Virus record (IMG/VR): IMGVR_UViG_3300031555_001876
Length of the DNA: 55,230 nt
Direction: 5' to 3' (one strand)
Source of the DNA: a virus
Of this stretch, positions 20,687 to 23,084 are shown in pieces. Position numbers and translations under genes: made by a program. Below the pieces are notes generated by a model. That model made no database searches. It was given only the letters and a program-made list of their open reading frames with translations, and had not been told where the DNA came from. The stretch's first letter is position 1; every line of letters starts with the position of its first letter.

Positions 20687-20809
20687 TATTATACTCATCT
20701 CTTATATAGAAGTATTAAAATAACCTACCTCCTAGTTAGCCCAGTTATGAGGACAGGAGGTAGGACGGAGACGGAAAATTTTATAGTGGGTAGGTGTCCC
20801 GATCGGGGC

Positions 20810-20900
20810 CACACCTACCCACTCATTTTTTTTATTTATTCACTCATTTTTTTTATTTATTCACTCATTTTTTTTATTTATCTACTTATTTCTTTTTATT
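20810..20900. repeat. Three tandem copies of CACTCATTTTTTTTATTTATT.
   Basis: Direct repeats at 20816-20880. Confidence 0.6.
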
Positions 20901-20946
20901 TATTTTATATCCAATAGCAAAGTAATTATAATCTTTTTTAATCTTA

Positions 20947-21402
20947 CTACCCGTTGTGCGGAGCACAACACAATACCTGCGCTCTCTCTTGCTCTTCCTT
21001 TAACAACTTATTTCCAATAGCAAGTCCATTCTTTATAAGTTCACTTGCCTTCTGCGCTAATACCTCAATATTCAAAAATTCTTCCTTACTTAATTGTGGC
21101 GCGTCCTTCATAGTATATGTATATTCTTTTTCATCTGCATTTGCGCTCGTGTTCCTGTATGTATTTAAACGCACATAAGGAATCTGCATATTATAAATCT
21201 TAATTCCACCATCATTCCTACAATGACCTGTTATATTATTATTTCGCACTAACGTAGGATATCCTTCTACTGTAGGAAAGTCTTTTATTACATAATATGA
21301 ATTGCTATCGCAAGTCATTCTTTCGAACTGTTCTCTTGTTACTACATACACATCTTTATTACTATACTTACCAATTAATCCACTACTATTTGCAATATCC
21401 AT
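20947..21402 (-). CDS. Hypothetical protein of 151 aa.
   Basis: ATG ORF ending in TAG followed directly by TAA. Confidence 0.4.
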   Translation of the reverse strand: MDIANSSGLIGKYSNKDVYVVTREQFERMTCDSNSYYVIKDFPTVEGYPTLVRNNNITGHCRNDGGIKIYNMQIPYVRLNTYRNTSANADEKEYTYTMKDAPQLSKEEFLNIEVLAQKASELIKNGLAIGNKLLKEEQERAQVLCCAPHNG

Positions 21403-21508
21403 TTTTCAATTCAACTTTCTATTTCAATTTTTGGATTGAAAATCCATTTTGGATTTTCAATCCAATTTTCTATTTTAATTATACCATAATTTTTTAAATA
21501 AATCAACT

Positions 21509-21742
21509 TTATAATGTAAACATATTATTTTCTAATAAACTATCCAATTTTTTCATTTCATTTTCTACAATATAATCATATCTAGTAACCGTATCATTAG
21601 GATCATAAACTAATACCGTCTCAAATGTATCCATATTAATATATACATCTTTAGCCCTATAATATCCATTTTTTGATAAAAGTTTATCTCTAAATTCTTC
21701 TTCTGTTACTCTCTTTAAACAAATTCTTGTTTCAATGCTCAC
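21509..21742 (-). CDS. Hypothetical protein of 77 aa.
   Basis: ORF whose upstream partner is a small ORF at 21742..21870 (MEIPKHIVKMIGKDYGVEWNKGD...). Confidence 0.35.
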   Translation of the reverse strand: MSIETRICLKRVTEEEFRDKLLSKNGYYRAKDVYINMDTFETVLVYDPNDTVTRYDYIVENEMKKLDSLLENNMFTL

Positions 21743-22352
21743 TATAATATCTCCAATTCAACTCTATTAATATCTTCTTTAGATATTCCTCTTCAGTATC
21801 TCCTTTATTCCATTCTACTCCATAATCTTTTCCTATCATTTTAACTATATGCTTTGGTATTTCCATTATTTATATCTCCCCGTATAGAAAAAATAAATGA
21901 TATTGAGACGAGCGAAGCGAAGTCGATTATATCATTTATTTTTTCCAATAATTATTTAGTCGTTTCTTTATTTAGTATTATTTAGATAATCTATGATTTT
22001 TTACCTAAAAGTATATGGAAGCATCTATGAAATTTTACCTAAAAGCGTGTAGATAAAATTACCTACCTCACTTTTTTATATAATCGAAACTAAATTTTGT
22101 AAGTTTCTTTTTCTATTGCTACCCATTAAAATATTCACAATAATCTATTAAACCTGAATTACATAATAAATCTAACGCATTATTAACAATAGAATATCCG
22201 CGTGTATTATTCTTTACTCTAATACCTATATGATTACCTAATTCTTCTAAATTAAATTCATACTAACGACCCTAACTTAACGCATACTTATATCTCTATC
22301 CTAAATAAATATAAATCTTAAATATATGTTCTCGGCAATTATCTTTTAAATA

Positions 22353-22703
22353 CTATATAGTATCCAAAGGAATATAAAAGAACATACTTTCCATCTCTGG
22401 TAAAATATAATCTCCTTCTTCGGTTAATATTACATATCCTTTTTCAATTAAATAATTCAAATGTGCTCTTAATGTTTTAGGACTTTTAATTCCTAATTTT
22501 TCACACACAATAGATTGTTTTGGAAATTTATCTTTATATACAATAGTATAATGATTACCTTCATCATCTTTTAAACCCATTGATATCTACTGCAAATAAG
22601 CATAAAGTTCTCCATCTATGTTTTTATCATTTAAAAAAGTTAAATAATCTAAACCAGTATCAGCAGGAAATCTTTTTGATATAGTTTTATCATCCAAAAT
22701 CAT
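22353..22703 (-). CDS. RepA_N-like / replisome-organiser-like winged-helix protein.
   Basis: ATG 22701-22703 follows a perfect GGAGG. An in-frame TAG at 22587-22589 joins ORFs 22587..22769 and 22353..22580. The motif SIVCEKLGIKSPKTLRAHLNYLIEKGYV resembles the Firmicute RepA N-terminal and DnaD-like wing. Confidence 0.45.
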
Positions 22704-22789
22704 ACACCTCCTACTATACTTAAAACTTAAATAGGTAAAATTTTTCCATTTTACCCAAAATATAACCAACTATTAAATTTTACCTTTTT

Positions 22790-22945
22790 GTATTACAAAA
22801 TTCTTATCGGCAACTATTAAAAATTACCTACAAATTTCAAATAAAAATAGGGAACTATTAAAAATTACCTCGTTTTTTTACCTATTTTGTTTCCCACTTA
22901 ACATTTAGAGCCAACTATTAAATTTTACCTTTTTTAATTAGATGT
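22790..22945. repeat. Iterons: four copies of AACTATTAAA(W)TTACCT upstream of the RepA_N-like gene.
   Basis: caactattaaattttacct, caactattaaaaattacct, gaactattaaaaattacct and ccaactattaaattttacct. Two further copies of agatgta(t/c)aaaattttaac lie in the same region. Confidence 0.6.
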
Positions 22946-23084
22946 ATAAAATTTTAACACAATTTTTAACATTTATCCAGATGTACAAAATTTTAACTTC
23001 TGGACTAACAATTACTAAATTGATTTTTAATAAAAAATATGATAAAATATATTTGTAAATAAAAAGAAATAAGGATGATATAGA

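Follow-up and report, generated by a model that had tools for sequence, protein, structure and literature searches.

A winged-helix gene bracketed by iteron-like repeats as a candidate origin/initiator cassette in a large stop-codon-recoded phage

What is a short run of AT-rich, minus-strand DNA doing among the plus-strand genes of a large phage? The question is raised by IMG/VR virus record IMGVR_UViG_3300031555_001876, a stretch of 55,230 nucleotides (the window, always meant here at its full length), in which the segment 20700-23060 forms an island with a GC content of 26.5% as against 34.6% for the whole window. The open reading frames (ORFs) of the island lie on the minus strand and the blocks on both sides of it on the plus strand. 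Both properties had been noticed in a sequence-only reading of the window and are borne out by the base composition and the ORF map; every repeat listed in that reading is also present, with coordinates that had been displaced by up to ~20 bp. The window is a portion of a large gut phage that reads TAG as glutamine (Gln), and its Shine-Dalgarno sequences and consensus promoters suggest a host among the Firmicutes. We know of no identified origin or initiator in the large stop-codon-recoded gut phages, for which the published placements are by GC skew only. We propose, with a probability of about 0.5, that the core of the island (~21887-23000) is a phage-native origin/initiator cassette of the iteron type, organised around the gene for a two-winged-helix protein.

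The gene, its family and sites confined to one locus

The elements on which this proposal turns are the following, in window coordinates.

22068..22703, minus strand: winged-helix protein gene; 211 amino acids (aa), ATG at 22703, AGGAGG Shine-Dalgarno sequence, seven in-frame TAG (Gln) codons, TGA stop
22768..22930, minus strand: upstream iteron cluster; four 18-bp direct repeats, sense strand AGGTAAWWTTTAATAGTT
22874-22884: extra TTACCT half-site in the upstream iteron cluster
22733..22755, unstranded: inverted half-iteron AGGTAAAAT ... ATTTTACC, with the last iteron on one side and the Shine-Dalgarno sequence on the other
21989-22006, 22023-22040 and 22049-22064, minus strand: downstream iteron cluster; three variant iterons in the same orientation, beginning 3 nt past the stop codon
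21952..21985, minus strand: A/T box; CTAAATAA three times on the sense strand (TTATTTAG at 21952, 21968 and 21978)
21887..21945, unstranded: long hairpin/palindrome; perfect 17-bp arms (21887-21903 and 21929-21945) and a 25-nt apical region
22940-22958 and 22979-22997, unstranded: a pair of 19-bp direct repeats, AGATGTAYAAAATTTTAAC, where the divergent spacer is richest in A and T
23020..23048, plus strand: right border; sigma-70-like promoter TTGATT-17-TAAAAT with upstream TG, serving the divergent gene 23085..23549

The spacer between the winged-helix gene and the divergent gene (22704-23084) has the lowest GC content, 21.0%. The gene itself had been described as a 116-aa gene at 22353..22703 that contains a recoded TAG. 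That ORF, however, is cut short at a recoded TAG, and the real gene encodes 211 aa, in agreement with the lengths of the full-length homologues (203-217 aa). The column of the invariant Gln136 is written as TAG in 12 orthologues and as CAA or CAG in 10. TAG makes up 7 of the 10 Gln codons of the gene, the highest share in the window; the corresponding share is 27-43% in late genes and 0% in nearby early genes. With so many of its Gln codons written as TAG, the protein would be made at full length only once the phage reads TAG as Gln.

Homologues number 372 in a database clustered at 90% identity, most of them full-length, and the family has 570 representatives at 50% identity, many of which are fragments truncated at TAGs. 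The members found here all belong to contigs of uncultivated phages, the longest ~200 kb; the contigs of the distant members are only 1.4-2.2 kb long and show no gene neighbourhood. A tblastn search with the family gave no matches in 72,556 plasmids (PLSDB) and none in 50,697 GenBank phages. Among 185,579 bacterial genomes there was one match, on a short contig in a metagenome-assembled genome (MAG) of the Eubacteriales, and this contig showed no evidence for a prophage or plasmid state. The family is uncharacterised and widespread, and it comes with an iteron-replicon layout in recoded phages.

A structure model was made on P0002, a protein 98% identical to that of the window. This AlphaFold (AF2) model, with a predicted local distance difference test score of 81.9, has two winged-helix domains, at about residues 30-110 and 113-204. 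Among the viral structures of BFVD there are seven matches at E < 1e-3, most of them full-length matches to unnamed gut-phage proteins; one match is named 'Replication initiator protein' (E 2e-4), and the weaker neighbours include a replisome organizer, three more replication-initiator entries and the N-terminal domain of lambda GpO. At the sequence level, Pfam HTH_36 is matched by 50 of 55 close members at sub-threshold to borderline scores (cutoff 25 bits; the window protein scores 22.7 and P0002 25.6). Matches to Rep3_N, none of which reaches the threshold (best E 2e-4), are given by 3 of the 55 close members and by 6 of 45 distant ones, and a match to Phage_rep_org_N by a single member; the commonest weak Pfam match is LexA_DNA_bind (52 of 55). 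Weak DnaD-like and replication-initiation matches were returned by PHROG. The earlier description of the protein as RepA_N/DnaD-like holds at most as a resemblance of fold and finds no support in sequence profiles: none of the 55 close and 45 distant members matches Pfam RepA_N (PF06970), and an hhalign comparison of the family with a 25-sequence staphylococcal RepA_N alignment, built from pLW043 RepA, gave a probability of 5% (E 0.008).

The layout of the sites was compared across 22 loci, whose orthologues share 44-98% protein identity. In the window, four exact copies of the 18-mer AACTATTAAAWWTTACCT lie at 22768-22785, 22812-22829, 22853-22870 and 22913-22930, with spacings of 44, 41 and 60 bp; no other exact copy occurs in the 55 kb, and there is one match with two mismatches, at 22023. 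Orthologous loci carry two to six upstream copies, all in the orientation of the gene. Each iteron consists of a conserved 5' half, (A/G)GGTAA, about five A/T positions and a lineage-specific 3' half, which reads AATAGTT in the window, CATAGTT in L003, GGATAGTT in L010, TCTACTTAC in L014, CTACGTTAG in L020 and GTATAGAG in L023. As this variable half follows the protein lineage, the two look like a cognate protein-DNA pair, and from these sequences we infer DNA binding by the winged-helix protein.

Downstream of the gene the same repeat recurs in variant form, the ATCTATGAWWTTTTACCTAAAAG pair at 21989-22011 and 22023-22045 being variant iteron copies. Orthologues have a series of two or three downstream copies, which starts right at the stop codon or a few bases from it with a spacing of mostly 21-24 bp, and 18-bp repeats are found at the stop codon even in L077, a distant standard-code relative (~25% identity). 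The sequence-only reading had made its proposal depend on conservation of the iterons, and this conservation is found: their position and orientation are kept in the 22 loci. Their copy number varies, even between the near-identical strains L003, L005 and L006. In relatives of 181, 196 and 201 kb, all exact iteron copies lie in one cluster, at the winged-helix gene.

Three further elements accompany the iterons. The inverted half-iteron overlaps a candidate promoter (TTAATA-17-TAAAAT, 22776-22748), and an arrangement GGGTAAAA-N-TTTTACC is kept in most lineages at ~30-50 nt upstream of the start codon; this element is a candidate autoregulatory operator. The A/T box, with the consensus (T)ATCTAARTAATAA, follows the last iteron and is conserved even between lineages with different iterons. 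Each lineage also has, in the stretch from the iterons to the divergent gene, a second, unrelated family of short direct repeats (GGTCAAAATTTTCTAT-like and present 3-6 times in L003, GAAAACTCATTTTAAAATC and present five times in L015), which may be binding sites of a second factor or reiterated promoters.

A hairpin with a conserved tip

The inverted repeat of the island, with its perfect arms of 17 bp, has a counterpart in all 22 loci, downstream of the iterons and with arms of 15-25 bp. The arms are unrelated in sequence between lineages, and their complementarity is kept. In the window, the tip reads GAGCGAAGCGAA on the plus strand (21910-21921) and TTCGCTTCGCTC on the sense strand of the gene. 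The conserved tip is TCGCTTCGCTC on the sense strand, or GAGCGAAGCGA on the plus strand of the window; its core on the plus strand is GCGAAGC, with the lineage variants CCGAAGG and GCGGAGC (antisense strand).

A covariance model with eight hairpin copies as its seed finds copies outside the seed, in L010 (E 1e-5) and in the island itself (E 0.05, 21892-21937, minus strand). In an alignment fitted to this model, 82.9% of the cells are paired as against 54% in shuffles, and the covariation score is 0.645, a value that none of 500 shuffles reached, as against 0.176 for the shuffles. Changes on both sides are seen at 13 of 14 stem pairs, and G-T accounts for just 18 of the 481 pairs predicted.

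The tip is also found away from the island, once in the window and once in a relative.

44565..44589, plus strand: second copy of the conserved 11-nt tip TCGCTTCGCTC; 7-bp stem GCTTTGT / ACAAAGC, 14 nt upstream of tRNA-Tyr
L025 4817-4859, minus strand: third copy, tip TCGCTGCGCTC; located where an ORF ends, with a TTGACA-17-TATAAT promoter directly after it

The copy at 44565-44589 is matched by the covariance model at E 5e-8, but it belonged to the seed.

In some lineages the tip of the sense RNA would be C-UUCG-G, which is a classic stable RNA loop. A plain intrinsic terminator was rejected as the sole explanation of the hairpin, since most lineages have no T-run right after the stem and the tip is conserved. 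All three core variants, GCGAAGC, CCGAAGG and GCGGAGC, are listed as stable DNA mini-hairpins; the primase origin of phage G4 and ssiA of RSF1010 are reported to carry GCGAAGC and CCGAAGG as hyperstable mini-hairpins (PMC13037366). The island hairpin resembles the G4 complementary-strand origin, the ssiA mini-hairpins and the N4 hairpin promoters in having a GCGAAGC tip beside putative initiator sites, and differs from them in that its mini-hairpin caps an AT-rich stem of 15-25 bp. By this analogy, it is possibly a single-strand priming signal. With its GCGAAGC or UUCG-type tip it is in any case a separate element that can be tested alone. Short GC-rich boxes (CGGCCGCGC, GCGCCGCG, GTCGCGCGC, GTGCCCGC, AGAGCGCTCG) stand directly 3' of the hairpin in several lineages (L014-L025), amid AT-rich DNA.

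Origin, operator or another kind of site

From the layout of the locus we infer that the cassette may act as an origin. The two-winged-helix protein would bind the bipartite 18-bp direct repeats, probably as a monomer, and its predicted target would be made up of the conserved AGGTAA half, the A/T spacer and the lineage-specific half. Two such clusters bracket the protein's own gene, and binding of a dimer to the inverted half-site pair at its own promoter would probably cause autorepression. Occupation of the arrays would lead to opening or remodelling of the adjacent DNA, which is very rich in A and T, and the A/T box and the long hairpin may form an auxiliary element, possibly one for single-strand priming. 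The dependence on TAG would tie the locus to the code switch.

Because the layout is like that of the P1 RepA, F RepE and pSC101 RepA replicons, origin recognition and initiation appear to be the most likely function. Iteron plasmids of the Rep_3, P1 and F type (pi of R6K, RepE of F, RepA of pSC101 and pPS10, P1 RepA with incC and incA) have, like the cassette, asymmetric direct repeats of ~18-19 bp beside the gene. In P1 and F, iteron clusters lie both upstream and downstream of the rep gene, as they do here. The putative inverted partial iteron at the gene's own promoter and the AT-rich flank add to the likeness, as does the tandem pair of winged helices (WH1-WH2) of Rep_3 initiators, which the model predicts for the window protein; clustered iterons with an inverted partial iteron at the promoter are likewise found at the sequence level. 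There are also differences. The cassette protein has no above-threshold match to Rep3_N and is shorter, at 211 aa; its upstream repeats are 41-60 bp apart and not ~22 bp; the cassette is without a conserved DnaA box; and it lies in a lytic-looking phage of ~190 kb and is written in a recoded code. Besides the layout, the comparison with the iteron replicons (P1, F, pSC101, R6K pi) draws on a 2NRA match.

Two other kinds of initiator share fewer of these traits. The RepA_N initiators, which have the DnaD/DnaB N-terminal fold and include RepA of pSK41 and pTZ2162 and that of Vibrio cholerae PLE (PDB 4RO3), resemble the cassette in the A/T-rich centre of their iterons and in a host range mainly among the Firmicutes, and the PLE protein shows that a phage-associated element can employ a RepA_N-type protein (PMC7145576). 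However, their origin iterons usually lie inside the rep gene, whereas the cassette repeats are outside the ORF and on both sides of it, and the C-terminal half of the cassette protein is predicted to be a second winged helix and not a PF18008 domain. The phage origin-binding proteins (lambda O, the SPP1 replisome organizer G38P and the HTH_36/Phage_rep_org_N group) are similar in that a phage winged-helix protein is accompanied by repeated putative cognate sites; the recurrent weak HTH_36 matches, and the replisome organizer and GpO N-terminal domain named in BFVD, point the same way. In contrast to the cassette, the origins of this group lie within the initiator gene, and these genes stand in operons with helicase loaders or helicases. 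For the window protein, neither an above-threshold HTH_36 or Phage_rep_org_N match nor a helicase or loader operon, by which a lambda O-like system would be recognised, was found.

A number of observations weigh against an origin. The cumulative GC skew, which the sequence-only reading had put forward as a check, has its minimum at ~6-7 kb, where gene orientation switches, and not at the island, across which it does not flip; the dip of the skew in the island arises because the genes there are minus-strand. The genes to the left run towards the island, unlike what a bidirectional origin would lead one to expect. No DnaA box, with up to one mismatch allowed, is conserved in position across the loci, and no helicase, primase, polymerase or loader was found among the scanned window ORFs, in which the sole replication-related match is a weak one to an exonuclease subunit (15443-16195), at a distance of ~6 kb from the cassette. 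Folds of the winged-helix kind are very common; Foldseek against PDB gave nothing below E 0.018, no significant sequence-profile link to RepA_N, Rep_3 or DnaD was found, and PDB profile searches with the close and the distant alignments gave generic winged-helix regulators only, including MecI/BlaI, MarR, DeoR and LexA. The spacing of the upstream iterons is irregular and has no clean helical phase. Finally, both of the additional tip copies, at 44565-44589 and in L025, are sense-oriented to local transcription, which is a further difference from the G4 and ssiA elements and makes an RNA-level terminator or processing hairpin equally possible as a DNA element.

The regulatory matches are the starting point of the rival that survives best, which we consider tenable though somewhat unlikely: that the repeats are operators through which the protein, as a transcription factor of local action and under its own control, would govern its own promoter, the variable cargo genes downstream and possibly the divergent plus-strand operon. 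Such a locus would resemble the immunity region of a phage, as in lambda, where OL and OR operators lie on both sides of the repressor gene, or in the Bacillus phage phi105, with its direct-repeat operators. A regulator would account for the exclusively regulatory results of the solved-structure profile searches, for LexA_DNA_bind as the commonest weak match, for the inverted half-site at the gene's own promoter and the variable cargo, and for a gene that runs backward, beside a divergent promoter, in an early region where consensus sigma-70 promoters abound; it would also fit the absence of GC-skew, DnaA-box and replisome-gene support for an origin. However, the sites lie at one locus only in genomes of 181-201 kb. 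No iteron overlaps the divergent promoter, the nearest ending at 22930, 90 bp from the -35 element at 23020, and the asymmetric tandem arrays after the stop codon, with their 21-24 bp spacing, have no obvious promoter to regulate. The best structural neighbours, moreover, are initiators. A lysogeny repressor should be open to translation in the standard code, yet TAG makes up 7 of the 10 Gln codons here; published work has found that recoded stops are avoided in the lysogeny genes of recoded phages (bioRxiv 10.1101/2021.08.26.457843). With operators away from the divergent promoter and seven in-frame TAGs in the gene, the locus does not have the marks of a CI- or phi105-type immunity repressor. 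Should the protein be a regulator instead of an initiator, it would still represent a new family with a well-defined operator layout.

A more elaborate version of the origin proposal adds timing to it. The TAG-written initiator would appear after TAG reassignment and fire a dedicated late origin, and the hairpin-tipped palindrome would prime synthesis there. We regard this version as speculative and doubtful. If it is true, stop-codon recoding, whose known links so far are mainly with structural and lysis genes, would be coupled to a change in the mode of replication or to a late surge of genome amplification. The winged-helix gene, with the largest TAG share among Gln codons in the window, is neither a lysis nor a structural gene, and hence it offers a test of whether recoding times the expression of particular functions. 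The cassette would matter as an origin candidate irrespective of timing: it is concrete and widespread (570 clusters at 50% identity, with no significant Pfam or PDB assignment), and the clear pairing of a protein with sites of which one half tracks the lineage makes it directly testable.

It is also conceivable, although improbable, that the repeats are a cis site for some other handling of DNA, either a partition centromere of the TubR/ParR type or a packaging site of the pac or cos type. The winged-helix protein Nu1 of lambda, which binds cosB, provides a model for the latter. Direct-repeat arrays beside a small winged-helix gene, at one locus per genome, would fit such a site, as would the weak profile matches to TubR (E 0.013 and 0.19), the very high TAG use, which is like that of late and packaging genes, and the assemblies that break in or near the repeat arrays (L005, L006, L011). 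Partition, however, would call for a motor nucleoside triphosphatase: no ParA, ParM or TubZ is present in or beside the cassette at any locus examined, the cargo varies, and the downstream ORFs of 44, 77 and 151 aa have no family matches. As to packaging, the large terminase subunit is encoded on the same strand at a distance of 17 kb, where it has partner genes of its own upstream; the modelled protein lacks the oligomerisation domain typical of small terminases, and the genome position of the contig ends changes from one assembly to another.

Whatever its function, the cassette does not look like a newcomer. It is enclosed by homologues of its flanking plus-strand genes (148 aa at its left, 154 aa at its right) in L003, L007, L009 and L012, and this synteny holds in relatives at 61-70% protein identity. 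The ORFs of 151, 77 and 44 aa, in contrast, are variable cargo that differs or is absent in relatives, and in most loci the winged-helix gene opposes its neighbours. Judged by these comparisons, the cassette is an old, resident part of the phage lineage and not a recent insertion; the integrated plasmid-like replicon of the sequence-only reading is unlikely, given the heaviest TAG=Gln use in the window, the synteny of the flanks and the lack of any tblastn match in the 72,556 plasmids. That the island is a recently inserted foreign plasmid-like replicon or mobile element is very improbable: its GC content, ~9 points under the window mean and 12-17 points under the left flank, its opposite strand and a 15/16-nt repeat at 20716 and 22054 that brackets its accessory part would fit such an origin, but the winged-helix gene uses the TAG=Gln code of the phage, the same flanking genes surround the cassette in those relatives, all 22 loci are phage contigs, the family has no plasmid match and one MAG contig in 185,579 genomes, and there is no integrase or transposase among the Pfam and PHROG results for the island ORFs.

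The remainder of the island and of the window

The accessory part of the island consists of the following features.

20724..20904, unstranded: left border; hairpins at 20724-20764 and, GC-rich, at 20785-20823, then a T-rich run
20947..21402, minus strand: accessory 151-aa ORF; ends TAG-TAA, kept only in the closest relative, L001 (55% identity)
21432-21446 and 21450-21464: two adjacent 15-bp palindromes TGGATTnnnAATCCA, after the promoter at 21506-21478 and upstream of the 151-aa ORF
21506-21478, minus strand: near-consensus sigma-70-type promoter TTGATT-17-TATAAT with upstream TG
21509..21742, minus strand: 77-aa ORF, variable accessory gene
21732..21866, minus strand: 44-aa ORF, variable accessory gene of uncertain reality; no homologue in related loci

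Pfam and PHROGs gave nothing usable for the three ORFs, and an Rfam scan of 20000-23600 gave matches at chance level only. The island had been said to lack promoters, which the promoter at 21506-21478 contradicts; the palindrome pair that follows it looks, from its symmetry, like an operator pair for some dimeric repressor. At the left border, the T-rich run is itself a tandem repeat of 21 bp; this repeat had been noticed earlier and is real, but it has 4.0 copies at 20820-20904 and not three at 20816-20880. Hairpins followed by a T-rich run are consistent with a terminator between convergent genes. The 15/16-nt direct repeat TAAAATWACCTACCTC that encloses the accessory part lies at 20716-20731 and 22054-22069, its right copy overlapping the stop codon of the winged-helix gene and the first downstream iteron; an additional binding site, a scar of recombination and a chance match are all conceivable.

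When TAG is opened, stop-to-stop ORF coverage of the window rises from 32% to 100% at 1-5 kb and from 53% to 91% at 5-10 kb. With TAG read, the minus-strand genes at 1226-7285 encode a portal protein, a large terminase subunit, a conserved protein of 402 aa without known function and a sigma factor, each with 4-7 in-frame TAGs, and two short ORFs at 7356-9132 have one or two. The listed plus-strand genes from ~14.8 to 33.2 kb have none, and four listed plus-strand genes further right have one to three. A lone TAG terminates none of the listed genes; the sole TAG stop (20947) is followed directly by TAA. A further minus-strand ORF, 10236-11465, was rejected as a gene, its translation being of low complexity. 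Fourteen tRNA genes are present at 43.2-50.6 kb, none of them a TAG suppressor tRNA(CUA). Neither the region 20000-24000 (blastn) nor a 544-aa neighbour (tblastn) has a match among GenBank phages.

Consensus promoters TTGACT-17-TATAAT with upstream TG stand at 20076, 20169 and 20240, to the left of the island. Repeats of 40-66 bp with CATTTGACTAAA(G/T)CG at 10029-10207, 14446-14568 and 14674-14755 are probably reiterated early promoter cassettes. At 33240-33959 (plus strand), a GIY-YIG endonuclease gene with three in-frame TAGs lies amid otherwise TAG-free plus-strand genes and probably encodes a homing endonuclease. It is followed at 34263-36621 (plus strand) by an isochorismatase/nicotinamidase-like gene between two phosphoribosyltransferase-like genes, which looks like an auxiliary module for salvage of nicotinamide adenine dinucleotide. 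Further right, the gene at 48991-49758 (plus strand) encodes a protein of 255 aa in which Cys, Gly and Thr are extremely abundant, and its DNA has repeats with a period of 12 nt (Tandem Repeats Finder matches at 49140-49314); a radical-SAM-like gene (47691-48974) lies directly upstream, and the two may be a modified-peptide pair. Conserved blocks of ~45 bp in L003-L006 match several intergenic sites of the window, for example those at 28305, 31560, 38699 and 49758.

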